Of a DNA stretch of 37,400 nt, positions 16,291 to 37,400 are shown piece after piece; the first letter of the stretch is position 1; every line of letters begins with the position of its first letter. Under the pieces are notes generated by a model. It had not been told where the DNA came from and made no database searches. It worked only from the letters and a program-made list of their open reading frames with translations. Source of the DNA: Candidatus Pacearchaeota archaeon (GTDB lineage: Archaea; Nanobdellota; Nanobdellia; Pacearchaeales; UBA284); assembly GCA_018304245.1 (NCBI GenBank), contig JAGVWO010000001.1, positions 1-37,400 of the forward strand, written 5' to 3'. A program made the position numbers and the translations under genes.

Positions 16291-16293
16291 ATT

Positions 16294-17085: not shown

Positions 17086-17142
17086 AACTATTTTGGAGAA
17101 TGTTTAATTATAAATCTTTTGTCTAGAACAACCAAGATATTT

Positions 17143-17760: not shown

Positions 17761-17801
17761 CTTTAAGATATGTTTTTAAATTCCTTTTAATTTATAAAGA
17801 T

Positions 17802-18092: not shown

Positions 18093-18213
18093 AAATATGG
18101 AAAAAAGGCATCCTGAAGGGTAAAAGATGCACAAATAATTGATAATTAATAATTACTCGCGGTTTATCGCCATATTGCCTTCGGGGCGAAAAATTAAAAG
18201 AATATAACATAAT

Positions 18214-18813: not shown

Positions 18814-19034
18814 AAAAATATGACCGAGATCAAGCAGAAAAATATACACGGGTTTTTGGAAAATTAGTAGATTTACATGATTTATATGTTGCGAACAAAA
18901 GAGAGATTAAAGAAAAAGATAAAAAAGAAATAGAAAACCTATTTGATGATTTAAGAGATATTCCAGAAGAATTAAAAATAAAAAAATTCAAACAACAATT
19001 AGAAGAACTTGAACAAGAATATAATCGAAAATAA
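18810..19034 (+). CDS. Hypothetical charged coiled-coil protein, 74 aa
   Basis: ATGA start/stop overlap with the upstream gene. It is K/E-rich with heptad-like periodicity and has no recognisable motif. Confidence 0.4.
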   Translation: MKKYDRDQAEKYTRVFGKLVDLHDLYVANKREIKEKDKKEIENLFDDLRDIPEELKIKKFKQQLEELEQEYNRK

Positions 19035-19035
19035 A

Positions 19036-19389
19036 ATGATGGATTTAAGAAATTACAAACAAAGATTACTTGAAACATATGATTTAGAAATAGATAGAAT
19101 CATCAAAGAAATAAAAAAGAATAAAGCAAAACTTGTTTGTTTACAATTTCCAGAAGGATTAAAAGCAATTTCTCCAGAAATTGCAATTGAAATAGAAAAG
19201 AAAACAAACTCTAAGGTTTTAATCTGGCTTGATACCTGTTTTGGGGCTTGCGATACGCCATTAGGTCTAGATACCCTAGGAAATCAAAGATTTCCTGGGT
19301 CCAGAAAAAGTAAAACTTTTTCTCGGGAACTTGGCGTCGACATATTGATTCAATTTGGCCATGCACCGTGGGATGAGAGAAATAAATAA
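19036..19389 (+). pseudogene. dph2: Truncated diphthamide synthase Dph2: N-terminal about one third only (remnant or split-gene fragment)
   Basis: YDLEIDRIIKEIKKNKAKLVCLQFPEGLKAISPEIA...DTCFGACD...GVDILIQFGHA matches the Dph2 domain-1 landmarks (LQ.PEGL, YGACD, D.LIH.GH). The ORF stops 7 codons later, at about 117 aa against about 330 aa for archaeal Dph2. The start is at ATG 19036, 1 nt after the upstream stop. Confidence 0.6.
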
Positions 19390-19425
19390 AGAATTTATTT
19401 AAATGAATTAGTTTAATTATAATTT

Positions 19426-19899
19426 ATGAAGCAATCAATAAGAAAGGGTTTTAGTTTCGGTTTAACTTCTGGAATAATTACAACCCTTGGTTTAATTGTT
19501 GGTTTATATTATGGTACCCAGTCTACTTTAATTGTTATTGGAGGTATTCTTGCAATAGCAATCGCTGATGCGATGTCTGATGCACTGGGGATTCATATCT
19601 CTGAAGAATCTGAGAACAAACATTCTGTAAAAGAAATATGGGAATCAACAATTTCGACCTTCCTATCGAAGCTTGTTTTTGCATTGACATTTATCATCCC
19701 AATTATATTTTTAGAACTTTCTATAGCAATTGTTGTTTGTGTCATATGGGGATTAAGTTTGATGGCAATCTTTAGTTATTATATGGCTAAAAAACAAAAC
19801 ATAAAACCCTATAAGGTTATTTTAGAACATTTAATTATAGCGATTATAGTTATTATTATAACTTATTATGTCGGAAATTGGATAGCAACTTTCGGTTAA
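19426..19899 (+). CDS. VIT1/CCC1-family-like membrane protein (short form, membrane domain only)
   Basis: GLTSGIITTLGLIVGL and IAIADAMSDALGIHISEESE resemble VIT1 motifs (G.NDGL...L..G and A.SMA.GEY.S..SE). There are 4-5 hydrophobic helices. Confidence 0.45.
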   Translation: MKQSIRKGFSFGLTSGIITTLGLIVGLYYGTQSTLIVIGGILAIAIADAMSDALGIHISEESENKHSVKEIWESTISTFLSKLVFALTFIIPIIFLELSIAIVVCVIWGLSLMAIFSYYMAKKQNIKPYKVILEHLIIAIIVIIITYYVGNWIATFG

Positions 19900-19945
19900 G
19901 CCTTTAAGAAAATAGTTTTTTATACTTCAAAAACATAAAATTATT

Positions 19946-20998
19946 ATGCAAGAGTTGGATGGAAAAAAGAAGGTATTGGATTTTTTATGCTTTTTGTTAT
20001 TCCTTTATTTATTCATCTTTTCTTTAGTTTTAATTAAATTTTCTTTCACTGAAGTTGGGGAATATATTCTTCAGATAACAAGAGATAACATAAGTGAAAT
20101 AAATGCTCTAGGTTTTGGTTGGCTCTTAGCTTTAATAATGCAATCAAGTGGGGCTGCAACATCTGCTTTATTAGCTATGAATTTTGCCGGAATTATTGGG
20201 CCAATAGTTTTGATTTATATGGTTATTGGGACAAGAATAGGTACAACATTAACTGCCCTTTTTGTTTCTTTATTTATTTCTGCAAAAAGAAGAGATTTTA
20301 GACACGGATTTGAAATTGGATTAGCCAATCTTGTTTACGCCCTCCCGATTGCTATTTTTATGTTTTTACTCGAATATTTCTTTTCCTTTTTTTCCAAAAT
20401 GGGCAATTATTTTATTGTTTTAGGAGTTCCATTCAAAATTACTTTTATCGAGAATATAACTATGCCCTTAATCAAGCTAATAACATTTATCCCAGAATAT
20501 TTACTAGCTTTTTTAGGAATTTTCCTTTTGATATTTAGTCTTAAAAAAATGCCTGTTTTTATGATGCGTTTATGGGGGGAAGATTATATTCGAAAAAAAA
20601 TTAACAAATATTTTAAAAAGAAACACTTTTCCTTTTTTATAGGGTTTTTAATTGCTGTTTTTTTGACTTCTACGAGCATAACAATTGCCTTGCTTATTCC
20701 TTTAATTATTTCAAGGATCATTAATTTGAAAAAAGTTATCCCATACATTATTGGAACTAATTTAGGCGGGGTTGTTGATGCAATTATCGGAGGATTGGTT
20801 ATAGGTGAAACATCTATCCCTGCAATATTCACCTATGTTTCATTTAGTCTTATTGGTTTATTTTGGCTTTTTAATACTGATTTGATGTTTAAAATAACTA
20901 AATTTATCTCAAAAAGAACGCTCAAAATATCTAAGAAAAGAGCTATTCTCTTTGTTTTATTTTTTATTTTATTGGCTGTTTTTTTAAGTATCATTTAA
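19946..20998 (+). CDS. Na+/phosphate cotransporter family (NptA / Na_Pi_cotrans-like) membrane protein
   Basis: LALIMQSSGAATSALLAM...GTRIGTTLTALFVS and a second half-repeat IIGTNLGGVVDAIIGG resemble the duplicated QSSSA...GANIGTT signature. Confidence 0.55.
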   Translation: MQELDGKKKVLDFLCFLLFLYLFIFSLVLIKFSFTEVGEYILQITRDNISEINALGFGWLLALIMQSSGAATSALLAMNFAGIIGPIVLIYMVIGTRIGTTLTALFVSLFISAKRRDFRHGFEIGLANLVYALPIAIFMFLLEYFFSFFSKMGNYFIVLGVPFKITFIENITMPLIKLITFIPEYLLAFLGIFLLIFSLKKMPVFMMRLWGEDYIRKKINKYFKKKHFSFFIGFLIAVFLTSTSITIALLIPLIISRIINLKKVIPYIIGTNLGGVVDAIIGGLVIGETSIPAIFTYVSFSLIGLFWLFNTDLMFKITKFISKRTLKISKKRAILFVLFFILLAVFLSII

Positions 20999-21144
20999 CT
21001 AATCATTGTGTTTTATGGATAAAAATTTTAATTTTTTAATTATTAAAATAAATTAATAAATTTATCAACGGGCTAATACTATTTTTAAGAGAAAGATTTA
21101 AAAGTTTATAAGAGTATTAATTGATATATTCAAAAGAGGAGACC

Positions 21145-22611
21145 ATGGTTACATCAAACCCCAAAAAACTACTTAAAACGCTTAATCCAAAACAGCAAGC
21201 TTATGTAAATTTGAATTTACCCGATCCTCGAAACGGGGAATATCTTCTCGCGGTTTTTCATTTAGTATCCGGGGGAAAATTAAATATTTTGCAAGCTGCA
21301 ACTGAAATTGCAGCAGAATCTTCTACAGGTACAACATTTAAGGTAAATACCGAAACCCCTTTTTCTAGAGAAATGAATGCTCTTGTTTATCAACTCGATT
21401 TAAAGAGAAATCTTGTTTGGGTTGCTTACCCTTGGAGACTTTTTGATAGAAGAGGAAATGTGCAGAATATTCTAACATATATTGTAGGGAATGTTCTTGG
21501 AATGAAAGAGGTGAGCGCTTTAAAATTATTAGATGTCTGGTTCCCACCCGCAATGCTTGAACAATATGATGGTCCAAGTTATACTCTTGATGATATGCGA
21601 AAATACCTGAACGTCTACAAAAGACCAATTCTTGGAACAATTATAAAACCAAAAATGGGATTAACTTCAGCAGAATATGCAGAAGCCTGTTATGATTTCT
21701 GGGTTGGTGGGGGAGATTTTGTTAAAAACGATGAACCACAAGCAGATCAAGATTTTTGCCCATATGATAAAATGGTAAAACACGTTAAAGAAGCAATGAA
21801 TAAGGCAGTTAAAGAAACTAAAAAGAAAAAGATTCATTCATTTAATGTTTCAGCAGCAGATTTTGATACAATGATTAAAAGATGTGAAATGATTAGAAAT
21901 GCTGGTTTTGAACCAGGAAGTTATGCATTCTTAATTGATGGAATAACAGCAGGTTGGATGGCTGTACAAACTTTAAGAAGAAGATATCCTGACGTGTTTA
22001 TACATTTCCATAGGGCTGGACATGGGGCATTTACAAGACTAGAAAACCCCCTAGGTTTTTCAGTATTGGTTTTGTCAAAATTTGCAAGATTAGCTGGGGC
22101 TTCTGGAATACACACAGGTACTGCAGGTGTTGGAAAAATGCAAGGTTCTCCTGAAGAAGATGTTGTTGCTGCACATAATATTTTACATTTTAAGGCCAAA
22201 GGACATTTCTTTGAACAAGAATGGGCAACAATACCAGAGAAAGATAAAAATGCAATAAACCTTGTTCAGAAAGATATTGCACACCAGGCGATTTTAGAAG
22301 ATGATAGTTGGCGAGGAATGAAAAAATGTTGTCCAATTGTTTCTGGGGGTTTAGATCCAACCTTATTAAAACCATTTATGGACATAATGGGAAACACAGA
22401 TTTTATTACAACAATGGGTGCAGGATGCCATGCTCATCCAGGGGGAACTACGGCTGGAGCAAAAGCATTAGTTCAAGCATGTGAAGCATATGAAAAGGGA
22501 ATTGATATTAAAAAATATGCAAAAAAACATAAGGAATTAGCCGAAGCCATAAAGTTTTTTTCAAAAGGAAAAAGAGAAATAAAACGATCAGAAAGCACAG
22601 AAAGGGGTTAA
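21145..22611 (+). CDS. rbcL: RuBisCO large subunit, form II/III-like
   Basis: GTIIKPKMGL, GGGDFVKNDEPQADQDF (KNDE as in form II rather than the KDDE of form III), IHFHRAGHGAF, GIHTGTAGVGKMQGS and PIVSGGLDP. At about 488 aa it is longer than typical form III. I prefer the ATG at 21145, preceded by GAGGAG, over the track's TTG at 21121. Confidence 0.92.
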   Translation: MVTSNPKKLLKTLNPKQQAYVNLNLPDPRNGEYLLAVFHLVSGGKLNILQAATEIAAESSTGTTFKVNTETPFSREMNALVYQLDLKRNLVWVAYPWRLFDRRGNVQNILTYIVGNVLGMKEVSALKLLDVWFPPAMLEQYDGPSYTLDDMRKYLNVYKRPILGTIIKPKMGLTSAEYAEACYDFWVGGGDFVKNDEPQADQDFCPYDKMVKHVKEAMNKAVKETKKKKIHSFNVSAADFDTMIKRCEMIRNAGFEPGSYAFLIDGITAGWMAVQTLRRRYPDVFIHFHRAGHGAFTRLENPLGFSVLVLSKFARLAGASGIHTGTAGVGKMQGSPEEDVVAAHNILHFKAKGHFFEQEWATIPEKDKNAINLVQKDIAHQAILEDDSWRGMKKCCPIVSGGLDPTLLKPFMDIMGNTDFITTMGAGCHAHPGGTTAGAKALVQACEAYEKGIDIKKYAKKHKELAEAIKFFSKGKREIKRSESTERG

Positions 22612-22720
22612 TTTCTTAGATTTTGAAGAAGAGATAACTTCTTACAAGGATTTACACAAATATTATTTTATATGAAGATTCTCAGAAGGATTTCTTACTC
22701 TTTTAGTATTTTAAAGATAA

Positions 22721-23305
22721 TTATAATTTAATCAGACGATGGATTTTATGTTTTAATTTATCATAAACACAAACATTTGAAACTTCAAATTCCTTTGGTA
22801 CACTATATTTATTAATCAATTTCAAAATCCTTTCTTTATCTTTAAAATCATTTAATTTCACAATAGTCATATGTGGACGATAATACTTAAAATAAAAGGG
22901 TAGTTGATATTTTTTTATCATCTCTTTTTGTTCATTATTTAATTCACATTCAAAATTAATTATTCTTGGAGTAGAAACATATTTTTGAGAAATCTTAACA
23001 GCTTTTTCATGTAACATTTGAAGATAATCATTATTTTGAATAATAAACACAACATGTCCTCTTTGAAAAACTTCAACACCCTTTATATTGAGTTTTAAAG
23101 GTTTAGATTTCGATATTTCCCCTTGGTATTCTTTAATAAATCCACTAATATTTTCTGAAAAGAAGTCTTCCCTTAAGGTAATATGTGGTGGAATGCTTGG
23201 AAGTTCAGTAATATCTGTAAAATCATCCCTCATGCGAGAAATTAGATTTCCAAGAGGTTCATCGGGTAACAAAACAAGAGCATACATCCCTTCCATATAA
23301 TCCAA
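22721..23305 (-). CDS. 2H phosphoesterase superfamily protein (LigT/ThpR-like 2',3'-cyclic phosphodiesterase / 2'-5' RNA ligase)
   Basis: It has two H-x-T-x motifs (PPHITLRE and RPHMTIVK) at the expected spacing. Confidence 0.7.
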   Translation of the reverse strand: MDYMEGMYALVLLPDEPLGNLISRMRDDFTDITELPSIPPHITLREDFFSENISGFIKEYQGEISKSKPLKLNIKGVEVFQRGHVVFIIQNNDYLQMLHEKAVKISQKYVSTPRIINFECELNNEQKEMIKKYQLPFYFKYYRPHMTIVKLNDFKDKERILKLINKYSVPKEFEVSNVCVYDKLKHKIHRLIKL

Positions 23306-23401
23306 TAAATTTTATTTTATTTTAAATCTTTCTGTATTAGAATGGAACCCCCCTCTATTTTATTCAACAAACTTTTTAAGTTCCTTTTTCCATATTTTAC
23401 C

Positions 23402-24013
23402 ATGAATTTTCAAGAAGCTCAGCAATTATTGAAGGAATATGTACACAAACCAGAAATCTTGATGCATTGCCTGGAAGTTTCCATAATCATGCGGTTTTTG
23501 GCTCGTGAATTAGGAGAAGATGAAGAAAAATGGGCAATTGCTGGATTACTTCATGATATAGATTATGAATCATGCTTGAAAACAGAGGACTGTTTTCGGC
23601 ATCCCGAAAGCTCTGAGATTTCGCGATTTTCAAGTTTAGAGGAACATGCAAAAAAAGGAGCTGGAATAATCAAGCAAAAATATCCTAAAATCGAGGAAGA
23701 TATAATTCATGCAATTCTTGCCCATAATGAAGAACATACAAAAACAAAAAGAGAAAACAAATTCGATTTTGCTTTAGCTGCAAGCGATAATATTTCTGGA
23801 ATGATTTTTGCATATGGATTAATGAGAAAATCTCTTGAAGGCATGGAAGTTAAATCATTAAAAAAGAAGATGAAAGAAAAAAGCTTTGCATCAACAGTAA
23901 GAAGAGACTTAATTTATGATATTAATAAGGGCAATATAGATTTAGATAAATTTCTAGAAATTGCAATAAAAGCGATGCAAAGCATCGCTAGAGAAATTGG
24001 ATTTGGGAAATAA
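23402..24013 (+). CDS. HD-domain phosphohydrolase (COG2316-like) carrying a 25-codon in-frame insertion
   Basis: EAQQLLKEYV...LMHCLEVSIIMRFLARELGEDEEKWAIAGLLHDIDYE ... EEHAKKGAGII...IIHAILAHN...KSLKKKMKEKSFA follows the family layout. The start is taken at MNFQEAQ (23402). Confidence 0.75.
   Translation: MNFQEAQQLLKEYVHKPEILMHCLEVSIIMRFLARELGEDEEKWAIAGLLHDIDYESCLKTEDCFRHPESSEISRFSSLEEHAKKGAGIIKQKYPKIEEDIIHAILAHNEEHTKTKRENKFDFALAASDNISGMIFAYGLMRKSLEGMEVKSLKKKMKEKSFASTVRRDLIYDINKGNIDLDKFLEIAIKAMQSIAREIGFGK
23570..23644 (+). other. 75-nt GC-richer, hairpin-rich, codon-phased insertion within the HD hydrolase gene
   Basis: It is flanked by the near-identical direct repeats GAATCATGC (23567-23575) and GAACATGC (23642-23649). 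The terminal inverted repeats are CTTGAAAA (23575-23582) and TTTTCAAG (23627-23634). Internal hairpins are GAAAACAG-agga-CTGTTTTC (23578-23597) and TCGG-catc-CCGA (23596-23607). Confidence 0.4.
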
Positions 24014-25837: not shown

Positions 25838-28800
25838 TTATTTTTTACCCTTGTTTATTGTTTTATTTCCTAGGTTTTCTATTTTCTTAGGAGCTAATGA
25901 GCTTAAATCCTTTTCGGAAAGTTCTACTAAAAGACCTGGAAGGCCTGTTCCAACAGGAACTGGTTGATTTAATATTAAATTTTCAACAACACTGACTAGG
26001 TGATCTGTTGAACCATTAATTGCAGCATTTACAAAATGTTTAATTGGTGTTTCGAAAGATGCTCTTGCCAAAATAGATGATTTATCCTCTATAATTCCTA
26101 TCCTAGTAACTCCTTTGATTTTTCCATTCACAGTCATAGCATCAGCAATAAGTTTTGTGTGTTTTTCACTGATATCAAGCCCCTGTTTTTCAAGAACTTT
26201 TTTAACTTCAACCATGATGGATTCTCTTGCAGCTTCTATACCAAATATTTTTACTATTTCATAAAGATTATTTGTTGTTGTTTTATCTTGGTTTACTTCT
26301 TTTAATTTTAAAACATCTTCTAAATTTGAACCAGCAGTTAAAACAACATATTCATTTTCTCTCTTTACAGGCAATACTTGTTTTATTCCCTTTATTCCAG
26401 AGATCATAATTCCTTTTATTTTTTCTTTTAATTTATATAACTTTTTGAAATCGTCTTCTTTTACTTTTGGAGAAATAGTAATGCTTTCATCATCTTTTCT
26501 CACACTAAGTTCCTTTTCAGCAAGTGCGTTTGCTATTTTTTCACTATTTAAGTGAAATTCTTTCATAGCATCTTTATTTAATTTAACATTAATTTTTCCA
26601 TTATTAAAATCAATAATTATTTCTTTTGCTACATCTATTAATTTAACTTCTTTTATTTTTGCGGCTAATCTTCTTGCACCGTCTTCATTGTTGTGTTCCT
26701 TATCAAGATAGACTTCCATAGATGGTGTTGAAGGGTTCTTTCTTGCATCAAAGATTTCTATCAATCTTGGAAGGCCTGCAGTAACCTGCATCTCAGAAAC
26801 TCCTGCGAAGTGGAAAACATTCAATGTCATCTGCGTAGCTGGTTCTCCAAAGCTTTGTGCAGTGATAACTCCAACAGCTTCTCCTGCAGAAATTTTTCCA
26901 TTTTCTAAATGTTCTTTAGAAACATCTATACCGTCTTCACCATATTCGAATTGAATTACTTGAGCATTTGAATCTCTTACTGTTCCATCATATTCTACCC
27001 TCATATCTTGCAATGCATTTGCTAATCTTCTGTATAAATAACCAGATTTAGGTGTTCTTAATGCTGTATCCATCAGGGAATCTCTTCCAGTAATTGCTGT
27101 AAAGAAAAATTCATCAGGATTTAATCCACTTAAGAAACTACTTTCTACAAATCCACCAGCTCTTGGAGATAAATCATTTTGTTTGTAAAAAGGCAATGTT
27201 CTATTATGATAACCAATATTAATTCTTTTACCCCAAAGGGATTGCTGACCAACTAAGCATGACATCTGGGTTAATTGCAATAAATTACCCCTTGCTCCAC
27301 AAATAGTCATTAAATATGCTGGATTGTCTTTGTTAAGTCCTTTCTTTGCAACTCCACCAATTTTTGTTCTGACTTCGTTTAAAACTTGTAAGATCTTAAT
27401 TTCCCTACTTTCTTCTTCAGTTTTTCCAGGAATAACTTCTAATGATTTGTTATAATATGAATCAATAATTGCATCAACTTTCTTTTCAGAATCTTTTACA
27501 ATTTTTCCAGTTTCATCTTTTACTTCTTTTGTTGTTTTGATGTCTTGTAAAGATAAGGTCAAACCATATTTTGTTAAATATAATATTCCAAGTAAAAAAA
27601 CTTGTCTTAAAAAATTCATGGTTTCGATTCTCCCAACCTGTTTATCTAGTTCCCTAATTAATGCATTTGTTTCAACACCAATGATTTTCTCGTCCATTAT
27701 TCCCGAAATAACTTTTCCATTTTCAATTGAGATGTAAGCACTATTTGGGCAATTTTCTTTTTTACATTTATCATAATAAGGACATTCTTTTCCCTTACAA
27801 CTTTTTGTTTTTGCTTCAAAATTAACCTTAGGCATAATCATTGAAAGAACTTCTCTTCCAGATGGGTTTTCTTTCATTGAAGCAAGTTTATCATCTTTTG
27901 CTCCTGCTAAAATTAAAAGTTGTGTTGCAACTGCTTTTGGAATTTTTTCTTGAGATGTGAGTAAATATAATCCTGTAACAGAATCTTCAACACAACCAAA
28001 TACATTAGCATTAATTTTTGGCGAGATTAAATTTTTTGAAACATCTAATAAAATTTTTGATTCTACTCTAGCTTCTTCAGTTTGTGGGGCGTGAATATTC
28101 ATTTCATCCCCATCAAAATCTGCATTATATGGGAATGCAACTGCTGGGTGAATTCTAAATGTTCTTCCAGGAAGTACTCTTACAGAATGTGCCATTAAGG
28201 ACATTCTATGCAAACTTGGATGTCTGTTAAATAAAACAACATCCTTATCTCGAATATGCCTTTCTACAGTATAGCCCTCTGTAACTTCTTCCATTAATTG
28301 ATCTCTTGTTTCTTCTGTGAGTCTTTTTTTCTTCTCATCTGGTCTAGCAATTCCGGTTGCGCTTGGATAATCTTCTTTTTTTAATAAGGCCTTTAAAGAT
28401 TCTTTATTTTCTGTTGTGACTCTTTCTGGAATAGTTAAAACTCTTGCAACCTCATAAGGAACTCCAACTTCATTTAAACTTAAGAATGGATCTGGACTTA
28501 TTACAGTTCTACTTGAATAATTTACCCTCTTTCCAGCCAAGTTATGTCTAATTCTTCCTTCTTTACCTTTGATTCTTTCAGTAATTGTTTTTAAGGGTTG
28601 CCCACTTCTATGTCTTGCTGGCGGTATATTTGAAATATTATTATCAAAGAATGTTGTAACGTGATATTGTAATAGGTCCCAAAGATCTTCAATAATTACT
28701 TCTGGTGCACCTGCATTAAGGTTTTCCCATAATCTTTGATTACTTCTTACTATATCTGATAATTTGTGTGTTAAATCGTCTTCAGATCTTTCTCCTGTTT

Positions 28801-29407
28801 CTAGGGTGATACTTGGTCTTACAGTTACTGGAGGAACCATTAATAAGGTTAAAACAGCCCACTCTGGTCTGCATGCCCTTGCATTGATTCCTAAGATCTT
28901 AAGATCTTCATCTGAAATTCTAGACAATAATTCTCTTATTTCTGTTGGGAATAATCTTTTTTTGCCGATGTAAAAACTAGAGGGTTTTTCAAGTTTAATT
29001 TTTTCTTGTTCTGCTTTGCAATGTGGACATTTTTTTGCAGTTTTTGCTTTTGCAATTTTTTTATTTTTAACATCTTCTTCAGTAAGTAAAATTCTTCCAC
29101 ATTTTTTACATGTTGCTTTTAAGCATAATTCAATCATTGGTAAGAATTTAATATGTAAAACAGGTCTTGCGATTTCTATAAATCCAAAATGACCAAGACA
29201 AGATTTTAAATCATTTCCACATGTTCTGCATCGTACACCTGGGTTTATAACTCCAAGTCTTAAATCCATTAAACCACCATCAACAGGATATCCATCCATA
29301 TCATACAATTCCGGAGTAACTATCTTTGCGACAGAATATTTTTTAATTTGTTCTGGAGAGAATAAACTAAATTGAATTTCCTTGACTTGTTTTATTAATG
29401 GTATCAT
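25838..29407 (-). CDS. rpoA: DNA-directed RNA polymerase subunit A, with A' and A'' portions fused in one 1189-aa ORF
   Basis: A' landmarks are the zinc region CRTCGNDLKSCLGHFGFIEIARPVLH and the catalytic NADFDGDEMNIH. The A'' landmarks GEAVGVITAQSFGEPATQMTLNVFHFAGV (trigger loop) and FETPIKHFVNAAI lie in the same frame. No stop intervenes. Confidence 0.95.
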   Translation of the reverse strand: MIPLIKQVKEIQFSLFSPEQIKKYSVAKIVTPELYDMDGYPVDGGLMDLRLGVINPGVRCRTCGNDLKSCLGHFGFIEIARPVLHIKFLPMIELCLKATCKKCGRILLTEEDVKNKKIAKAKTAKKCPHCKAEQEKIKLEKPSSFYIGKKRLFPTEIRELLSRISDEDLKILGINARACRPEWAVLTLLMVPPVTVRPSITLETGERSEDDLTHKLSDIVRSNQRLWENLNAGAPEVIIEDLWDLLQYHVTTFFDNNISNIPPARHRSGQPLKTITERIKGKEGRIRHNLAGKRVNYSSRTVISPDPFLSLNEVGVPYEVARVLTIPERVTTENKESLKALLKKEDYPSATGIARPDEKKKRLTEETRDQLMEEVTEGYTVERHIRDKDVVLFNRHPSLHRMSLMAHSVRVLPGRTFRIHPAVAFPYNADFDGDEMNIHAPQTEEARVESKILLDVSKNLISPKINANVFGCVEDSVTGLYLLTSQEKIPKAVATQLLILAGAKDDKLASMKENPSGREVLSMIMPKVNFEAKTKSCKGKECPYYDKCKKENCPNSAYISIENGKVISGIMDEKIIGVETNALIRELDKQVGRIETMNFLRQVFLLGILYLTKYGLTLSLQDIKTTKEVKDETGKIVKDSEKKVDAIIDSYYNKSLEVIPGKTEEESREIKILQVLNEVRTKIGGVAKKGLNKDNPAYLMTICGARGNLLQLTQMSCLVGQQSLWGKRINIGYHNRTLPFYKQNDLSPRAGGFVESSFLSGLNPDEFFFTAITGRDSLMDTALRTPKSGYLYRRLANALQDMRVEYDGTVRDSNAQVIQFEYGEDGIDVSKEHLENGKISAGEAVGVITAQSFGEPATQMTLNVFHFAGVSEMQVTAGLPRLIEIFDARKNPSTPSMEVYLDKEHNNEDGARRLAAKIKEVKLIDVAKEIIIDFNNGKINVKLNKDAMKEFHLNSEKIANALAEKELSVRKDDESITISPKVKEDDFKKLYKLKEKIKGIMISGIKGIKQVLPVKRENEYVVLTAGSNLEDVLKLKEVNQDKTTTNNLYEIVKIFGIEAARESIMVEVKKVLEKQGLDISEKHTKLIADAMTVNGKIKGVTRIGIIEDKSSILARASFETPIKHFVNAAINGSTDHLVSVVENLILNQPVPVGTGLPGLLVELSEKDLSSLAPKKIENLGNKTINKGKK

Positions 29408-29426: not shown

Positions 29427-31226
29427 TTAATAGTCATATTTATTCTTCAACACAAGGTGTGGGAATAAATGCATAGACAATAGTTCTTCAACTAATAATT
29501 TTGAAGCATAAGATATTTCAACTGGTTCAAGTTTTTGGTTTCCACATAATGGGCAAACTTCTTTGTTTTTTGTTCTGTCTCTAATTCCCATGCTTCCGCA
29601 AGTTGGGCATACAAAAACAACGACGTTATCTGAACTGAATCTTTCTTTTAATAATAATGACGCACCATGAGCAACCAATGCATCTTTTTCCATCTCTCCA
29701 AGTCTCAATGCACCACCTTTTGCTCTTCCTTCAACTGGTTGTCTTGTTAATAAGGTAATTTTTCCAGATGCTCTTACCTGAATTTTATTTGCGACCATAT
29801 ATTTTAATCTCAAGTAATACATGTTTCCGATAAATATCTTTGCTTCTAATGGTTTTCCAGTTATTGGATCATACATTGTTTCTTTTCCATCTGCTCTAAA
29901 TCCTAATTCTTGTAATGTTTTTTCAAGATCTGTTGTATCATTTAATGAAAATGCAGTTCCATCAATAATTTTTCCAGATACACAACCAACTTTTCCAGAT
30001 AACAATTCCATTAGGTAACTTACAGTCATTCTGCTTGGTAAACCATGTGGATTAAATATTAAGTCTGGTTTTATTCCCCTGCTTGAAAATGGAATATCTT
30101 CTTCTTTTGCAATAAAACCTAAAATTCCCTTCTGTCCATGTGGTGTTGCAAATTTGTCTCCGATTTCTGGAATTCTTGTATCTCTTAATCTTGTTTGGAT
30201 AATCTTTCTTCCTTCTTCATCTGTTGTTATAAAAACTGCATCTACAACGCCCTTTTCTCCTTGTTTGATTACAGTAGAATTTTCTTTCTTTGATTTTGCC
30301 AAGGAAATCTCTTCCATTTCCAATAAGAATTTTGGAGGAGATATCTTTCCAATAACAACATCTTCTTCAGACATATCTGCTTCTGGGAAAACAATCCCGT
30401 CATCTTCAAGTAGTCTATATTTCTTTTCTGTTCTATATCCTGTAACATCTTTATTTGGGATGCAAATTTCATCGGACAAATTTCCAGTGTAGAATAATTC
30501 TGTTGAACCATAAGGTCTGAAATATGTTGATCTTGCTAATCCTCTGTCTAAACTTCCTTTGTTAAGTACCAAAGCATCACTCATATTATACCCATCATAT
30601 GGCATAATTGCAACTATGACGTTTTGCCCTGCAGGATAGAAATTTCCATAATCATATACGAAACTTCTTACAATTGGTTTTTGTGGATAATGAAGTATAC
30701 TAACGTCGGTGTCTATTAAATCTAGATAATTTGCGGCATATAATCCAAGAGATTGTTTTTGTGTTTTACTACCTCTTGCAAGTCTGGATGACTGGTCATG
30801 GTTTGCAAATGGAACTAATGATGTAACTAATCCAAACATTGCAATTGGATCTATTTCAGAATGAGTATGTTCTTTTGTTAATTCTTTTTCATACATGGCA
30901 ATAAATAAATTGTCTTCTTCAGAAGCATCAACATATTCAATAATTCCTTGATCAATAAGATCATTCCAAGACATACTGCCAGAATTTACTTTGTCGATGA
31001 TTTCTTGTGTTAATAACGATTTTCCATCTTTTACAATAACAAGAGGTCTAAGAACCCTTCCAATATCTGTTGTAAGCAAGATTGTATTTGTTAAATGATC
31101 AAATCTTGCACCCAATTCTCTAGGGGTTTCACCATCTCGTCTCTTTTCTTTTAAATTTTCAAGAAACTTTGCTGAATCCTCAGTTTCTCCGACGAAATGT
31201 CCGTTGTAAAATATGTCTGTAGCCAT
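29427..31226 (-). CDS. rpoB1: DNA-directed RNA polymerase subunit B' (C-terminal part of split RpoB)
   Basis: GDKFATPHGQKGI, GGALRLGEMEKDAL and the C-terminal zinc ribbon CPTCGS...CPLCG. Confidence 0.95.
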   Translation of the reverse strand: MATDIFYNGHFVGETEDSAKFLENLKEKRRDGETPRELGARFDHLTNTILLTTDIGRVLRPLVIVKDGKSLLTQEIIDKVNSGSMSWNDLIDQGIIEYVDASEEDNLFIAMYEKELTKEHTHSEIDPIAMFGLVTSLVPFANHDQSSRLARGSKTQKQSLGLYAANYLDLIDTDVSILHYPQKPIVRSFVYDYGNFYPAGQNVIVAIMPYDGYNMSDALVLNKGSLDRGLARSTYFRPYGSTELFYTGNLSDEICIPNKDVTGYRTEKKYRLLEDDGIVFPEADMSEEDVVIGKISPPKFLLEMEEISLAKSKKENSTVIKQGEKGVVDAVFITTDEEGRKIIQTRLRDTRIPEIGDKFATPHGQKGILGFIAKEEDIPFSSRGIKPDLIFNPHGLPSRMTVSYLMELLSGKVGCVSGKIIDGTAFSLNDTTDLEKTLQELGFRADGKETMYDPITGKPLEAKIFIGNMYYLRLKYMVANKIQVRASGKITLLTRQPVEGRAKGGALRLGEMEKDALVAHGASLLLKERFSSDNVVVFVCPTCGSMGIRDRTKNKEVCPLCGNQKLEPVEISYASKLLVEELLSMHLFPHLVLKNKYDY

Positions 31227-31263
31227 TTTATTTTAATTATTAGTTTGTGTTTTCGTGATTTAA

Positions 31264-32739
31264 TTAACTGATTTTAACTCTTTTTAATCCAAATTTTTCA
31301 AGTCCATTTATTATTTCATCATCTGATTGTTTAGCTATTGTACTAACCCTTGCTAATAACGCTAGATTTTTTCTTAAACCAATAGGCGTACCTTCAGGAG
31401 TTTCAGTTGGACAAAATCTCCCGTAATGGGTTGGATGCAATGTTCTTGCTTTGAAATTTTCTTGTTCTGTTGGAAGTAAACTTGTAACTCTTTGTAATTG
31501 AGACAAAACAGATAAACAATTTGTTTTATCCATATTTTGAGTTACACCGGTTTTTTCTCCAATCCATGAACCTGTTGCAAATGCACTCTCAATCCTATGT
31601 GAAAATAATGTTGATTTTGCAATACTTTTTATTGAATAGAATTTTTTCTTTTTGGCAATTTTTTGTAAATTGTGTTGCAGGTCTCTTATAAGAATAGTTA
31701 AATTAACCCTGAATAAATCTGCTAATAAATCTCCAGATAATCTGACTCTTTTGTTGGCATAATGATCTTTGTCACTTCTTAATTTAAGTTCTTTAGCAAC
31801 TAAAAATTGTTTAACCAATTTAATAAGAGTAACTGCTTTTTCTTTTCTGAAATCTGCTTTTGTTCCAATATGTGGCAAGAAAGCAGAATCAATTCTTGCT
31901 CTTACTCTGTCCAGAATTTCTTTATCTGTACCCTGAATAGACATCTTTTCAGCAATTGCCTTCAAAGCATCTTCCTGGCTTTGTATTTTTACATGTTCGT
32001 ATAAGTTAACAATAACAGTATCTGATTCTTTTCCAATTAATGAAGCTATTTCAGAATCTTTGATTAAACCAAGAGCTTTTGCAACTAAAATTGCAGGCAG
32101 GTTTTTGAATCTTGAAAATGAAACAAGCAATAATCCGTCGTTGGATTCATTGATAGATACTGGGATTCTATAACTTCCTCTTTGTGAAAATAATCTTAAT
32201 GTTAATCCCTTTATTGTTTCTTCGATAAATGCTTGATTTTGAGCGAGATCTTCAATCATTGTTAAAACCCTTTCATTACCATTAACAATGAAATATCCGC
32301 CAGGATCTGCAGGATCTTCATAATTGTTCATGATTTCTCCCTTAGATAATCCGTTTAAATTACAATATTTACTCTTAATCATTATTGGAATTTTTCCGAT
32401 TTCAACTTCAGAATATTCTTTTTTCCCAACACTTATTTCAAGATACACTGGGGCTGAATATGTTATTTTTCTTAATCTTGATTCAATAGGGAAAATGTTT
32501 TTTATACTTCCATCTGATTCTACAATTTGGGGTTTTCCCACCCTAATTTTTCCTAACCAAAGATCTATTTCTTCTCTTGGAATGTCTTCATTAAGCATAT
32601 TCACAATTTGTTGTAATCTTCTTTCTACAAAATCATTGAAGGAGATAATATTTGATTCGACCAATGAATGTTCCTTTAAGTATAATCTAATAAGAGAATG
32701 TTGACTGCTAGTTGTTTGTATCTTATTTTCGTATGACAT
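31264..32739 (-). CDS. rpoB2: DNA-directed RNA polymerase subunit B'' (N-terminal part of split RpoB)
   Basis: FIVNGNERVL, DHYANKRVRLSGDLL and RTLHPTHYGRFCPTETPEG. The start is taken at MSYENK (ATG 32739), directly after the rpoH stop, rather than the overlapping track start at 32796. Confidence 0.92.
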   Translation of the reverse strand: MSYENKIQTTSSQHSLIRLYLKEHSLVESNIISFNDFVERRLQQIVNMLNEDIPREEIDLWLGKIRVGKPQIVESDGSIKNIFPIESRLRKITYSAPVYLEISVGKKEYSEVEIGKIPIMIKSKYCNLNGLSKGEIMNNYEDPADPGGYFIVNGNERVLTMIEDLAQNQAFIEETIKGLTLRLFSQRGSYRIPVSINESNDGLLLVSFSRFKNLPAILVAKALGLIKDSEIASLIGKESDTVIVNLYEHVKIQSQEDALKAIAEKMSIQGTDKEILDRVRARIDSAFLPHIGTKADFRKEKAVTLIKLVKQFLVAKELKLRSDKDHYANKRVRLSGDLLADLFRVNLTILIRDLQHNLQKIAKKKKFYSIKSIAKSTLFSHRIESAFATGSWIGEKTGVTQNMDKTNCLSVLSQLQRVTSLLPTEQENFKARTLHPTHYGRFCPTETPEGTPIGLRKNLALLARVSTIAKQSDDEIINGLEKFGLKRVKIS

Positions 32740-32740
32740 T

Positions 32741-32950
32741 TTATTCAACCACGACCCTGTAGTAGGCAATTTTTTTACCGTCAGATTTTCTTTCAATTTT
32801 TATAAAATCTCCAACAACACACCCTTCTGGAAGTGCAGGGTCTTCTGCCTTAATTTTAGGCAATTGTAACGAAGTTATGTTAAGTTTAGAAAGTAATTCT
32901 TTAGCTTCGCTGTCTTTTAGTTTTGTGTGTTTTGGTTGTAGAATATGCAT
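32741..32950 (-). CDS. rpoH: DNA-directed RNA polymerase subunit H (Rpb5 C-terminal domain homologue)
   Basis: HILQPKHTKLKDSEAKELLSKLNI...LPKIKAEDPA...GDFIKIER...YYRVVV is the typical RpoH pattern. It is the first gene of the operon. Confidence 0.85.
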   Translation of the reverse strand: MHILQPKHTKLKDSEAKELLSKLNITSLQLPKIKAEDPALPEGCVVGDFIKIERKSDGKKIAYYRVVVE

Positions 32951-33094
32951 TTTATCGTCTATAAATTAAATTATTAAGGTGGGATATTTATGGCTAACAG
33001 GTATATTTTATTGAGAAAAAATACCTTTTTAAATGTTTCGGTAAAATAGGGAAAAAGAGACAATCTTTAAATAAATTGGGGAATATTTAAATTG

Positions 33095-33508
33095 ATGAAA
33101 AAGGACAAGAAAGAAGGTAAAAATCAAAATTCTACTGTTCCAAAAGCAATATTTTGGACGCCAAGGATATTAGCAATGTGTTTTATTCTCTTTGTTAGTT
33201 TATTTGCTTTAGATATTTTTGAAATGAATCTTGGGTTTTGGGGAACAATTGTTGGTTTATTCATGCATCTTATTCCTTCATTTGCCTTAATAATTATTTT
33301 AATAATTTCATGGAAATATGAAATCGTTGGAACAATTGCATTTATTCTCGCAGGAATATTTTATATTATCATGGTCTTTATGAATTCATTTGAATGGTAT
33401 ATGCTTTCTTGGATTTTAACGATAGCTGTTCCATTGATTTTAACAGGAATTTTATTCTGGGTTAATTGGCACTTAAAAAGAAAGAATAAAAAAAGTAAGA
33501 GAAAATAA
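33095..33508 (+). CDS. Hypothetical 4-TM membrane protein
   Basis: It has four hydrophobic helices and a basic C-terminal tail (KRKNKKSKRK). I prefer the ATG at 33095 to the TTG at 33092. Confidence 0.45.
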   Translation: MKKDKKEGKNQNSTVPKAIFWTPRILAMCFILFVSLFALDIFEMNLGFWGTIVGLFMHLIPSFALIIILIISWKYEIVGTIAFILAGIFYIIMVFMNSFEWYMLSWILTIAVPLILTGILFWVNWHLKRKNKKSKRK

Positions 33509-33550
33509 GGTTTTAAAAACCTTTAAATAAACCTAAAATTTTCAAACCCT

Positions 33551-33904
33551 ATGGAGTCTTGGAATGGTCTTTCAACACATATAAATTTAAGGAATTGTGA
33601 TCCTAACTTAATCAGAAATCCAAAAGAAATAACCTCATTTATAACAAAATTATGTTCAATTATTAAAATGAAAAAATATGGGAAAACACAAATAAAAAGA
33701 TTTGGCAAGGGTGATTTAGAGGGATATTCCGCATTCCAGTTTATAGAAACATCTAATATTTCGATACATTTTGAGGAAGCAAAGAATAATGCCTTTATCG
33801 ATATTTTTAGCTGTAAAAAATATGATTTTAAAAAAGCAGCAAAATTTTCTAAAGATTTTTTCAAAGCAAAAAAAGTTTCATTTAAAATTTTACATAGGGT
33901 CTAA
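33551..33904 (+). CDS. speH: S-adenosylmethionine decarboxylase proenzyme-like (small pyruvoyl type)
   Basis: GLSTHINLRNCDP, then YSAFQFIETSNISIHFEEAKNNAFIDIFSCKKYD. This parallels the family pattern (ESH-ISIHTWPE...DVFTCG) including the Glu-Ser processing site region. The antisense ORF 33523-33864 is rejected. Confidence 0.55.
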   Translation: MESWNGLSTHINLRNCDPNLIRNPKEITSFITKLCSIIKMKKYGKTQIKRFGKGDLEGYSAFQFIETSNISIHFEEAKNNAFIDIFSCKKYDFKKAAKFSKDFFKAKKVSFKILHRV

Positions 33905-33982
33905 ATTGAATTAAAAAGAATTCAAAAGAATTTAAAAAATTCAAAGAGAAACCTTTATAATTTATATTAAATATTCTCTTTT

Positions 33983-34900
33983 ATGAATCTTAAAGCTGTA
34001 AAACCGATAAAAATAGAGAAAAATATCAAAGCAAGCGAATTAGTATCAAGAATGAAAGAAACAGGGTTTAATGCAAAATTTCTTGCAGAATCTGTAGATA
34101 TTCTTGAAGAAGCAATTAAAGATAAAGAATGTAAAATTTTCTTTGGATTAGCTGGCGCAATGGTTCCTGCAGGCATGAAACAAATACTTATAGAAATGGT
34201 TGAAAAAGGATATATTGATGTTTTCGTAAGCACGGGGGCTAATTTAACTCATGATTTAATAGAGGCCTTGGGTTTTAATCACTATCAGGGAGAAGAAAAA
34301 GCAAATGATGCCAAATTAAAAAAAGAGGGATATGATAGGATATACAATATATATATGAAAAATAATGTTTATGAGAAACTTGAATCTTGGTTTGAAGAAA
34401 ATTTTGATAAATTAAACTCTGAAACAAATACCGAATTTCTTAATAAAATTGGTAAATTATTAAAAAACACAAATTCAATCTTAGGAACATGTTATAAAAA
34501 AAATATTCCAATATATTGTCCAGCATTAAGTGATTCTGGAATAGGTTTAATGATTTGGAACATGATGATTAGGAAAAAGAAACCCCTGATGAGCGAATAT
34601 AATGATTTAAGCAAAATTATTGATTTTGCTTGGACAAATAAAAAGAAGGCAGTTTTTTATGTTGGTGGTGGAACACCAAAAAATTATATTCAACAAGCAA
34701 TGCAATTTTCAACAGCAGCAAAATATGGCGTCCAAATAAAAGTCGATGATGCAAGTTTTGGTGGTTCAAGCGGTGCCCCATTAAGGGAGGGAATAAGCTG
34801 GGGTAAAATGGAAGAAAAAGCAAAATTCATAGATGTTAATTGCGATGCAACAATCGCGCTCCCCTTAATTTATTCTGCTTTATTAGATAGATTGAGATAA
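33983..34900 (+). CDS. dys: Deoxyhypusine synthase
   Basis: FFGLAGAMVPAGMK, VSTGANLTHDLIEALG, GGGTPKNYIQQ and EGISWGK (catalytic Lys region). Confidence 0.9.
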   Translation: MNLKAVKPIKIEKNIKASELVSRMKETGFNAKFLAESVDILEEAIKDKECKIFFGLAGAMVPAGMKQILIEMVEKGYIDVFVSTGANLTHDLIEALGFNHYQGEEKANDAKLKKEGYDRIYNIYMKNNVYEKLESWFEENFDKLNSETNTEFLNKIGKLLKNTNSILGTCYKKNIPIYCPALSDSGIGLMIWNMMIRKKKPLMSEYNDLSKIIDFAWTNKKKAVFYVGGGTPKNYIQQAMQFSTAAKYGVQIKVDDASFGGSSGAPLREGISWGKMEEKAKFIDVNCDATIALPLIYSALLDRLR

Positions 34901-34952
34901 TTTTCCGAGATGATTTAATAATTTTTTGTCACTAAGTAGTTACTACCAAACG

Positions 34953-35010
34953 AAATATTTATAAAGGGGCATATGTTACTAATAAGTAAGTACAAAACAC
35001 AAGGTGTTTT
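34953..35010 (+). promoter_or_regulatory. Candidate trmB-family promoter: a TATA-like box followed by a perfect palindrome near the predicted transcription start
   Basis: AAATATTTATAAAGG lies at about 34953-34967. AAAACAC-aag-GTGTTTT lies at 34994-35010, 13 nt before the ATG. A second small palindrome, GTAGT-t-ACTAC, sits at 34936-34946 upstream of the TATA box. Confidence 0.3.
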
Positions 35011-35022
35011 GGTTATAATAAA

Positions 35023-35817
35023 ATGTCAACAAATAAAAACGAATTAGTAAAGAAAATAAAATTCCATTTCGGATTAAACATATACGAAAGTAAAGTTTAT
35101 GTTGCATTATTAGCAAAAAATGTCGCTTCTGTTGGAGAAATAGCTGAATCATCTGGCGTTCCAAGAAGCAGAGTTTATGATGTTCTTGAATCACTTGAAA
35201 AACAAGGATTCGCAGTAATGAGGCTTGGAAAACCTGTAAAATATATTGCAGTTAAACCAGGCGTAGTTATTGATAAAATGAAAAATAACTTAATGAAAGA
35301 AGCAGAAGAAAGAGTTGGCTTGATGTCAACAATTAGAGATACTCCAGAATATAGGGAATTAGAATTATTGCACAATACAAGAATAGCTCCTTCAAATATC
35401 CCTGATTTGAGTTCTGCTATTAAAGGAAGACAAAATATCTATACTCATATGAAAGAACTTTTAGCTGGTGCAGAAAAAGAAATTGTTATTGTAACAAGCG
35501 TAGAAGCACTAAAAAATAAAGTTTCTTTTTTGAAACCAATCTTTGAAGATTTAAAAAAGAAAGGGATTGTAATAAGGGTTGCTGCAAGTTCTCATTTAGA
35601 CTCTGAAAAAGAATCAGTAAGCTTGAGCAAAGAACTTGGAATTCCTGTAAGAAAAGTTAGATTAAATTCAAGATTATGTTTAGTTGATGGAACTAAATTA
35701 CTTATGTTTTTAACTCCCCATTCAGAAGAAGAGGAAAAAGACTTTGCAATTTGGGTAAATAGTGAATATCTTTCCCAAGCACTGTCAACATTCTTAAATC
35801 CTATTTGGAAGAAATAA
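35023..35817 (+). CDS. TrmB-family transcriptional regulator
   Basis: The N-terminal winged helix LNIYESKVYVALLAKNVASVGEIAESSGVPRSRVYDVLESLEKQGF is the classic TrmB signature. The C-terminal sensor-like domain is about 150 aa. Confidence 0.8.
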   Translation: MSTNKNELVKKIKFHFGLNIYESKVYVALLAKNVASVGEIAESSGVPRSRVYDVLESLEKQGFAVMRLGKPVKYIAVKPGVVIDKMKNNLMKEAEERVGLMSTIRDTPEYRELELLHNTRIAPSNIPDLSSAIKGRQNIYTHMKELLAGAEKEIVIVTSVEALKNKVSFLKPIFEDLKKKGIVIRVAASSHLDSEKESVSLSKELGIPVRKVRLNSRLCLVDGTKLLMFLTPHSEEEEKDFAIWVNSEYLSQALSTFLNPIWKK

Positions 35818-35836
35818 ATTTTCTCCTTTTTATAAA

Positions 35837-36244
35837 ATGTGTCACGAAAGAAAAAATATATTGCGTAACGATACCATTGCAAGAAAAAAAGGTATGATTC
35901 CCTTATTGGGCGATAGCGAGAGAGAAGATCTTACAAGAAGAGTAAATGATGATCATCACGCAACCGTAACTTATTTTAAAAGAATTGAGAATCATTATGA
36001 TGGGTATCTCAAACATAAAGAAATTTTAAATGAAATAAGTAAAGATAAGAAAAAAGAATCTACCCATTATGTTGGAGAATTAGAAAGAAGTGCATCAACA
36101 CTAGTACATCAATGTATGGCATTTAATGGCTTTTCTCAAAGAAATTATAAAATATTAAATTATCTTTTAAAGAAAAAAGATAAAAATTTGAATGAAGTTT
36201 TAGATGAAATTAAGGAAAGATATGGTTTTAAATTCCATATTTAA
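35837..36244 (+). CDS. Hypothetical protein, 135 aa
   Basis: ORF only. It is charged and helical-looking and I recognise no motif. Confidence 0.35.
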   Translation: MCHERKNILRNDTIARKKGMIPLLGDSEREDLTRRVNDDHHATVTYFKRIENHYDGYLKHKEILNEISKDKKKESTHYVGELERSASTLVHQCMAFNGFSQRNYKILNYLLKKKDKNLNEVLDEIKERYGFKFHI

Positions 36245-36290
36245 TTTATAGAAAAATAAAAAAAAGAAAAAAATAAAAAAAGAATTCAAT

Positions 36291-36470
36291 TTACCTCTTT
36301 TTCTTTTTACTGTAGTTTCTCATAAGCTTGCCAATACCAATCACGGTTACAGCTAAAGCAATTATCCAAGGTTGCCATACAGTTACTAATTCTCCTGTAA
36401 TGACGCCCAATTGAACAAGTAAAAGCCATACACCAATAACGGTTACAAGCCATGCGGTCAATTTTGCCAT
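36291..36470 (-). CDS. Small (59 aa) two-TM membrane protein, called in a different frame from the track ORF 36307-36513
   Basis: My translation is MAKLTAWLVTVIGVWLLLVQLGVITGELVTVWQPWIIALAVTVIGIGKLMRNYSKKKKR. The ATG at 36470 is preceded by AAAAAGGAGGTAAG. The track ORF in the other frame is Cys/Arg-rich and lacks an RBS. Confidence 0.5.
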   Translation of the reverse strand: MAKLTAWLVTVIGVWLLLVQLGVITGELVTVWQPWIIALAVTVIGIGKLMRNYSKKKKR

Positions 36471-36475
36471 TCTTG

Positions 36476-36523
36476 CTTACCTCCTTTTTAATTAAATAAT
36501 ATGGGATATTCAACTTTTTAAAG
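36476..36523 (-). promoter_or_regulatory. Promoter/RBS module copy 1 (TATA-like CTTTAAAAAGT plus AAAAAGGAGGTAAG)
   Basis: The 14-mer AAAAAGGAGGTAAG (36476-36489, minus) and the 11-mer CTTTAAAAAGT (36513-36523, minus) both recur upstream of the next gene. Confidence 0.35.
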
Positions 36524-36588
36524 ATTGTCTAATGGGAATTAAAAGAATAAAAAAGAAAAAAAGAATAAAAAAAGAAAAAAATAGATTC

Positions 36589-36918
36589 TTAAGCTTTTGA
36601 CAAACTAAATACGGATTTTAAAGCAACGATTATTGTTGCTGGTACGAAAATAGCCATCAAGTTCATTAAGAAAACAGATACATAAGCTAATTGTGAGAAA
36701 ACATTTCCACTTAACGCACTAACAATTACTAAGATTGTACCTGCGAATAAGAAAGGTTTTACTTCAGCATCGGTTATATTTAGTAATCCAATGATGATAC
36801 CTAGCGCAAAGAAAAGCCAGGTTAACCACATTCCTGCACCTAAAAATGCAAAAACAATGGCAAAGATTACCCCGATAAGGAAAGCCCATGCACCAATCAG
36901 ATTGGTTTTTTTAGCCAT
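36589..36918 (-). CDS. Hypothetical 4-TM membrane protein, 109 aa
   Basis: It is hydrophobic throughout. The ATG is preceded by an identical AAAAAGGAGGTAAG, and the minus-strand sequence downstream is T-rich. Confidence 0.55.
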   Translation of the reverse strand: MAKKTNLIGAWAFLIGVIFAIVFAFLGAGMWLTWLFFALGIIIGLLNITDAEVKPFLFAGTILVIVSALSGNVFSQLAYVSVFLMNLMAIFVPATIIVALKSVFSLSKA

Positions 36919-36969
36919 CTTACCTCCTTTTTATTTAATTAAATATAGATGGTTTTACACTTTTTAAAG
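36919..36969 (-). promoter_or_regulatory. Promoter/RBS module copy 2
   Basis: It has the identical 14-mer (36919-36932) and 11-mer (36959-36969), and the shared AATTAAATA, in the same order as copy 1. Confidence 0.35.
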
Positions 36970-37073
36970 TTTTCAATCATCTTTTGTCTTTCTTCAGTTT
37001 TTAATCCACTATGATAAATTCCACAATCTTTCCTTTCCTTTAAAAGAATTAGATTGTATATTTTTTCTGCCAT
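36939..37073 (-). pseudogene. 44-codon ORF resembling a fragment of a superfamily-2 helicase C-terminal domain (probable remnant)
   Basis: My translation is MAEKIYNLILLKERKDCGIYHSGLKTEERQKMIENFKKCKTIYI*. The segment YHSGLKTEERQKMIENFKK resembles the conserved 'YH.G....eR..v...F' segment of RecQ/DEAD-type helicases. It overlaps the promoter module of the downstream gene. Confidence 0.25.
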
Positions 37074-37144
37074 TTTAGTTTATTGAATACTGCTAATCTG
37101 TCGACCCTGTCCGCCTATAGCGGGCTATTTTAATTTATAGCATA

Positions 37145-37399
37145 TCTAGGTAGGCGTTGCAATAGGAGCACTGGCCGGAGCTCCGCCAGCTGGCGGATTT
37201 CCCCTCTTCGATACATCTATTTTTTTCCCAGCTATAATGCCATTTCTTATCAAAAGATTATGTATGGTATCGGTCGCCTTAGCGCCCTTCGAAATCCAAT
37301 ATAAAATTCGCTCTTTATCAAGCCGGATTTTATCTTTATGCCTAGTATCGTGATTCCCGACAATTTCAATAAACTTCCCGCTTTTTGTGGAATTGCGAG
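37145..37399 (-). CDS. rpsP: Bacterial-type ribosomal protein bS16, C-terminal part (N-terminus runs off the right edge)
   Basis: My minus-strand translation from the window end is SRNSTKSGKFIEIVGNHDTRHKDKIRLDKERILYWISKGAKATDTIHNLLIRNGIIAGKKIDVSKRGNPPAGGAPASAPIATPT*. It aligns by eye with E. coli bS16 (DSRNARNGRFIERVGFFNP...[21 protein letters not shown]). The region is visibly GC-richer than the rest of the window. The printed sequence appears to end at 37399. Confidence 0.8.
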
Positions 37400-37400
37400 A

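Follow-up and report, generated by a model that had tools for sequence, protein, structure and literature searches.

Results

Gene content of the window and layout of its ends

The window, which is the whole 37,400-nt stretch of DNA analyzed, was archaeal in gene content over its bulk, with genes for a split RpoB, RpoA, deoxyhypusine synthase, TrmB, RtcB and a RuBisCO large-subunit homologue. RNA polymerase subunit A (25838-29407, minus strand) was encoded by a single open reading frame (ORF) of 1189 aa with Rpb1 domains 1-5, in which A' and A'' appear to be fused. RNA polymerase subunit B (29427-32796, minus strand) was split into ORFs of 510 and 599 aa, and the same split was present in the independent contigs L001 and L002. 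Searches of the window for tRNA genes and Rfam RNA returned no matches.

The right end consisted, in this order, of piece A (to 36977), piece B (36963-37077) and piece C (37062-37400), with two joints (36977/36978 and 37061-37078) and sequence of a third origin lying between them. A further foreign piece occupied the left end. The features were as follows:

1 to 229: foreign left tail (piece D), 27.8% G+C over 1-209, with a 20-nt overlap with archaeal sequence at 210-229
210 to 36977: piece A, genuine DPANN (Pacearchaeota-like) archaeal sequence, on the basis of archaeal genes and identity to independent contigs
36939 to 37073, minus strand: artefactual 44-codon ORF, made of a MAEK start, about 32 helicase codons and archaeal intergenic DNA
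36963 to 36977: A/B joint, 15 nt (TTTAAAGTTTTCAAT) common to the native archaeal sequence and the helicase gene of contig L011, by base-by-base comparison
36963 to 37077, minus strand: piece B, internal 115-nt fragment of a superfamily 2 (SF2) helicase gene (389 aa, ResIII and Helicase_C)
37062 to 37077: B/C joint, 16 nt (TTTTTCTGCCATTTTA) common to the helicase gene and the khpA start region
37062 to 37400, minus strand: piece C, Candidatus Giovannonibacteria DNA, 100% identical over 339 nt to contigs L012 and L013
37062 to 37073, minus strand: first 4 codons of khpA, in piece C
37074 to 37145, minus strand: rpsP-khpA spacer, in piece C
37146 to 37400, minus strand: last 84 codons and stop of rpsP (bS16), in piece C, with the frame open to the window edge

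Positions 36978-37400 contained only a 38-codon helicase fragment, the 4 khpA codons and the truncated rpsP. No integrase or recombinase, no repeats at the joints, no att duplication and no intact cargo genes were found in 36978-37400. The G+C content changed from 0.305 (A) to 0.262 (B) and to 0.416 (C) across the two joints. Genes were broken at every joint, namely the helicase gene (38-codon internal piece), khpA (4 codons) and, at the left end, a glutaredoxin gene (codon 36).

The bS16 fragment and its source

The rpsP frame at the right edge (37146-37400, minus strand) read SRNSTKSGKFIEIVGNHDTRHKDKIRLDKERILYWISKGAKATDTIHNLLIRNG...PT-stop (84 aa) and ended in ...RLDKERILYWISKGAKATDTIHNLLIRNG...PT-stop. 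The fragment matched the Pfam family Ribosomal_S16 (PF00886; E 2.2e-9; 37.5 bits against a cut-off of 27) at profile positions 18-62 of 62, and thus passed the profile threshold for bS16. The gene was incomplete in the window, which held only the last 84 of 108 codons, the frame leaving the window at 37400. The full-length protein (P0001, 108 aa) contained the window fragment at 100% identity and matched solved bS16 chains (E about 1.2e-15), with all 58 of its PDB matches being bacterial, mitochondrial or chloroplast bS16. The closest organism-named bS16 (94% identical) was from Giovannonibacteria; organism-named matches were all from CPR/Parcubacteria, and none was archaeal. Archaea are not known to have bS16, and these match lists agree with that. 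An exact protein look-up found no record of the 84-aa fragment. Exact patterns taken from piece C and from the archaeal side had no match among the species-representative genome contigs that were scanned.

The full-length protein was located on two NCBI contigs, L012 and L013 (GCA_001778815.1 and GCA_001780755.1), both with the gene order L32, NusB, RNase III, SMC, bS16, KhpA, a 93-aa ORF and TrmD. KhpA and TrmD proteins identical to those of both contigs are named by NCBI as Candidatus Giovannonibacteria. Compared with this rpsP-khpA-trmD cluster of Giovannonibacteria (Parcubacteria, CPR), window positions 37062-37400 were a 100% identical partial copy (255 nt of the rpsP 3' part, the spacer and the khpA start), lacking rpsP codons 1-24 and the whole of khpA beyond its first 4 codons. 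The bacterial context of rpsP (khpA and trmD) was present on L012 and L013 and not in the window, where the archaeal surroundings of rpsP are a consequence of the false join. On the native contigs, a 93-aa ORF separated khpA from trmD, and rimM was not seen in the precomputed annotation. A Y1 transposase (IS200-like) gene was called upstream of rpmF in L012 (297-971) and was not called in the near-identical L013; L012 also had a LAGLIDADG_2 ORF downstream of trmD.

The G+C content of piece C (0.416) agreed with that of L012 and L013 (0.42) and differed from that of positions 1-36977 (0.305). In a sliding scan of the left part (36,639 stretches of 339 nt), G+C never reached 0.416 (maximum 0.404; z = 3.1).

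These results bear on several points of a preliminary description made from the sequence alone. Its reading of the right edge as the C-terminal 84 residues of a minus-strand bS16 was borne out by the PF00886 match (E 2.2e-9) in the frame 37146-37400. The rise in G+C that it saw relative to an archaeal part of about 30% was confirmed by the comparison of both sides that it had proposed (0.305 and 0.416), no archaeal stretch of 339 nt having a matching value. The GC-rich, hairpin-like words that it quoted are located in the Giovannonibacteria rpsP-khpA spacer and the 3' end of rpsP. Its guess of a CPR-like bacterium agreed with the 100% DNA identity of piece C to Candidatus Giovannonibacteria contigs. 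As to the bacterial neighbours that it expected beyond the edge, trmD was found (together with khpA), on the native contigs and not behind archaeal genes; rimM was not seen in the precomputed annotation of these contigs.

Archaeal sequence and its continuation

Independent contigs were colinear with the window over 210-8048, 11121-23569 and 30589-36977 (99.3-100% identity), and the sequence from 210 to 36977 can be read, within these three checked stretches, as that of one archaeal genome. The last archaeal protein (109 aa, 36589-36918) was located by exact look-up in ten places (ENA, JGI and Logan), on ten archaeal contigs of up to 39.8 kb and of four assembly kinds as judged by their names, with MEGAHIT-style k141, SPAdes-style NODE, ANAN16 scaffold, JGI and Logan names among them. 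One of these contigs (L009) was a strain variant, whose identity to the window varied between 97.5% and 98.3% from stretch to stretch, and the other nine were 99.3-100% identical over the parts compared.

The match to the window ended at base 36977 in all ten contigs, which then read TAGAAAATAA followed by tRNA-Cys(GCA). The point of divergence between A and B was 10 nt from the 3' end of tRNA-Cys. The longer contigs extended to tRNA-Lys(CUU) and a TFIIS-type zinc ribbon, an identical protein being named by NCBI as "transcription factor S [Candidatus Pacearchaeota archaeon]", and the longest four reached a TYW2/Trm5 methyltransferase gene. Logan contigs on the archaeal side also fitted the window to 36977 and then continued with unrelated sequence (TAGAAAATAAGCACGGGCAGGGAATTGAAC...). 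The junction was absent from all ten independent archaeal contigs, including the strain variant.

Strain variation was considered as a cause of the divergence and was ruled out by the abrupt change from 100% identity to unrelated sequence, and by the exact sources that both foreign pieces have elsewhere.

Scaffold L003 (ANAN16 sample SAMN03842451) was 99.3% identical to the window over 33519-36977, with one gap. At 6675-6803 of this scaffold a 42-aa gene was called, compared with a 135-aa ORF in the window (~35837-36244), which suggests a strain-level frameshift or indel in this hypothetical gene.

The helicase fragment and its source

The pattern taken from 36978-37061 matched one JGI contig, L011 (Ga0209518_1007477, 7.6 kb, positions 1-7617, 24% G+C). 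Piece B was an exact copy of L011 5813-5927, inside the ORF at L011 5552-6721 (minus strand). The replication module on L011 comprised an RFC-like AAA ATPase, a clamp-like protein (weak DNA_pol3_beta_3 match), AAA_24, a phage metallopeptidase, the ResIII/Helicase_C helicase and a small TrmB-like wHTH protein. The piece B pattern was absent from IMG/VR by exact pattern search, and the label "virus-like" for L011 comes from its gene content. Its composition would fit a host among either DPANN archaea or CPR bacteria.

Contigs of runs X4, X7, X8 and X21 covered piece B and followed L011 on both sides with no loose ends. The Logan contigs of the likely source run (X1/X3) did not include piece B, in keeping with a very low depth of this piece there. 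The piece C contig of X1/X3 stopped exactly at 37400, and the left foreign tail was present in X1 alone among the four runs compared at that end, which makes the sample behind these runs the probable source.

The two joints of the right end

The words shared at the joints were AT-rich and are expected by chance in a metagenome of such size. With 2 x 345 Mb and 30-40% G+C, about 4-18 chance occurrences were expected for the 15-nt word of the A/B joint, and about 0.6-1.2 for the 16-nt word of the B/C joint.

The start of khpA (6400 in L012) corresponded to window position 37073, and the first four codons (MAEK) of the 44-codon ORF beginning there were common to Giovannonibacteria khpA and the helicase. 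The 44-codon ORF had a weak Helicase_C match (E 1.4e-3), and exact look-up among 153 billion gene positions found no record of its chimeric product elsewhere. In the seven runs with a contig reaching the joint, position 37062 was preceded by ...TACAAATTCCAGAAATTCCTGGTCTCCGAA, which is the khpA sequence of L012. The piece C contig of X4 started at 37081, short of the joint.

The preliminary description was correct in reporting a junction, and misplaced it at about 37085: the changes of origin are at 36977 and about 37062-37077, and there are three parts instead of two.

Depth and k-mer content across the joints

Logan contigs of eight runs were placed on 36600-37400, the runs that contain this stretch being groundwater and soil metagenomes; X3 was apparently the same data as X1, filed twice. 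No contig from the eight runs spanned either joint of the right end, where absence from Logan contigs, from which rare variants are dropped, is not proof of absence from reads. No contig was placed on 36978-37061 with the window as reference; this placement missed the contigs of X4, X7, X8 and X21 that contain piece B, and zero depth over 36978-37061 is thus weak evidence on its own. For the region 36930-37110 in these four runs, contigs covering 36978-37061 appeared with L011 as reference.

Word depth within the same runs was 6.2-6.8 for A and 2.9-3.8 for C. In X7, X8 and X11, piece C was present at a depth of 5.8-11.4, and no contig was placed on A. All three source organisms co-occurred in X4. 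For the 31-mers of 36700-37400, the runs with the largest share had 0.81 of those sampled, compared with 0.83 expected from A and C alone; for those of 36950-37090, no run exceeded 0.70, compared with 0.77 expected from B alone. These shares fit an absence of joint-spanning words from all indexed runs.

The right end thus presented a different continuation of each side elsewhere, short shared words with no record spanning them, and discordant depth and composition, as in assembly chimeras.

Left end of the contig

In contig L015, as in Logan contigs of X1, X2, X4 and X5, the match to the window began only at position 210; before that position these contigs carried the remainder of a 79-aa glutaredoxin gene. 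The left joint cut this gene after codon 36 and left a fused open frame at 1 to 318 (minus strand; MTKTIIVYG...DVG, then NAGISNTGTNDD...). Pieces 1-131 and 109-229 were found only in X1 among the four runs compared there, on separate contigs with a depth of 2.7-2.9 that diverged from the window after 229. The 106-aa glutaredoxin fusion and the 44-aa "helicase relic" ORFs are artefacts.

Discussion

Origin of the right end

The right 423 bases of the window are foreign to the archaeal genome, and the contig is very probably a computational chimera. The right end combines DNA of three organisms, namely a Pacearchaeota-like archaeon, a virus-like element and a bacterium of the Giovannonibacteria. 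The bS16 fragment belongs to an ordinary ribosomal protein gene of a CPR bacterium, truncated by the contig end, and the window has no archaeal bS16 gene, no inter-domain transfer and no integrated element. Of the two origins that the preliminary description had left open, the archaeal-bacterial chimera agrees with the different continuation of the ten archaeal contigs and with the exact sources of the foreign pieces; the real inter-domain junction, by transfer or through an integrated element, is contradicted by its absence from all ten.

The genuine Pacearchaeota-like sequence stops at 36977; the 115-nt helicase fragment was attached to it by a chance overlap of 15 nt, and the 339-nt Candidatus Giovannonibacteria fragment was added to piece B by one of 16 nt. 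The joins probably stem from a step in which contig ends are extended or repaired with reads of low depth and overlaps of about 15-20 nt suffice. The length of piece B (115 nt) is that of one 150-nt read after quality trimming.

Judging from their accessions and record names, scaffold L003 and the Giovannonibacteria contigs seem to derive from the aquifer study of Anantharaman et al. (2016). In that study, 150-nt paired reads were quality-trimmed and assembled by IDBA-UD with k from 40 to 100, detected errors were repaired by Velvet re-assembly of nearby reads, and scaffold ends of selected genomes were extended by mapped reads (PMC5079060). The assembly of the window may have passed through the same pipeline. 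Overlaps as short as 15-20 nt do not suffice for a graph with k >= 40, and a repair, gap-closing or end-extension step is therefore proposed. The occurrence of three false joins at both ends of one contig likewise points to a systematic step rather than to biology.

The contig resembles known chimeric metagenomic contigs and contaminated ends of metagenome-assembled genomes in that organisms are joined at a short word with discordant G+C and depth, in its broken genes, in the divergent continuations of independent contigs, and in the short foreign pieces at contig ends. It differs from them in having three joints in one contig, two of them about 100 nt apart, and in its overlaps (15, 16 and 20 nt), which are shorter than the usual k-mers of assemblers and thus again indicate gap-closing, repair or end extension and not the primary de Bruijn graph.

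Alternative explanations

The joints might also have been formed physically during library preparation, by template switching or ligation at microhomologies, and then assembled faithfully, which would equally be an artefact. Short microhomologies of 15-20 nt, as at the present joints, are also typical of PCR template-switch chimeras, and the co-occurrence of all three source organisms in X4 is compatible with this origin. It would need two independent events 100 nt apart and a third one at the other end of the contig, and the pattern of the joints is better matched by a systematic end-extension routine. Moreover, a lone chimeric molecule would seldom survive de Bruijn assembly at k >= 40 and depth filtering (PMC5079060). 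An origin in library preparation is accordingly considered improbable.

A real junction, in which a mobile element with a helicase fragment and a captured Giovannonibacteria rpsP was inserted beside tRNA-Cys as a transfer from CPR to DPANN, is more improbable still. The divergence 10 nt from the 3' end of tRNA-Cys is in a classical neighborhood of integration, piece B comes from a virus-like contig, and these groundwater samples contain CPR bacteria together with DPANN archaea. Against this, the insertion was found in none of the ten independent contigs of the same population, the 97.5-98.3% identical strain variant included, and the supposed insert amounts to a gene-internal stretch of 115 nt plus 339 nt from a different genome. 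Piece B is exact over its 115 nt and piece C is 100% identical to its source, which leaves no sign of amelioration or of residence in a genome of 30% G+C. There is no integrase and there are no repeats at the joints, only broken genes, and the two-fold difference in depth and the comparable foreign tail at the other contig end also argue against a real junction. Viral or mobile-element integration at archaeal tRNA genes is similar in the departure from the native sequence 10 nt beyond tRNA-Cys, followed by virus-derived DNA, and unlike the present case, where integrase, att duplication, element body and independent assembly support are lacking and 115 nt of a helicase gene are all that there is.

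An integrated element at tRNA-Cys was considered separately and was excluded for practical purposes, given the gene-internal fragment, the lack of element features and the lack of independent support.

A mosaic insertion of the virus fragment and the Giovannonibacteria rpsP at tRNA-Cys in an archaeal sub-population too rare for the other assemblies is given the same very small probability as the real junction. If true, it would be direct evidence of a very recent flow of DNA from CPR through a virus to DPANN.

A genuine bS16 of the archaeon itself, vertically inherited or long established, has adjacency within a single contig as its one supporting point and can be dismissed, as Giovannonibacteria contigs contain the fragment with the same DNA sequence, organism-named matches are all CPR/Parcubacteria with none archaeal and PDB matches bacterial or organellar, its G+C (0.416) is not that of the archaeal part (0.305), and the true archaeal continuation is known.

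Implications

To claim a bS16 gene for an archaeon would be striking, but the claim is wrong in this case; the value of the finding is in quality control. Positions 1-209 and 36978-37400 of the window come from other organisms and need to be trimmed before the contig is used for gene content, horizontal gene transfer or phylogenomic analyses. As this contig has a foreign tail at either end, the ends of further contigs in its assembly may carry such tails as well.
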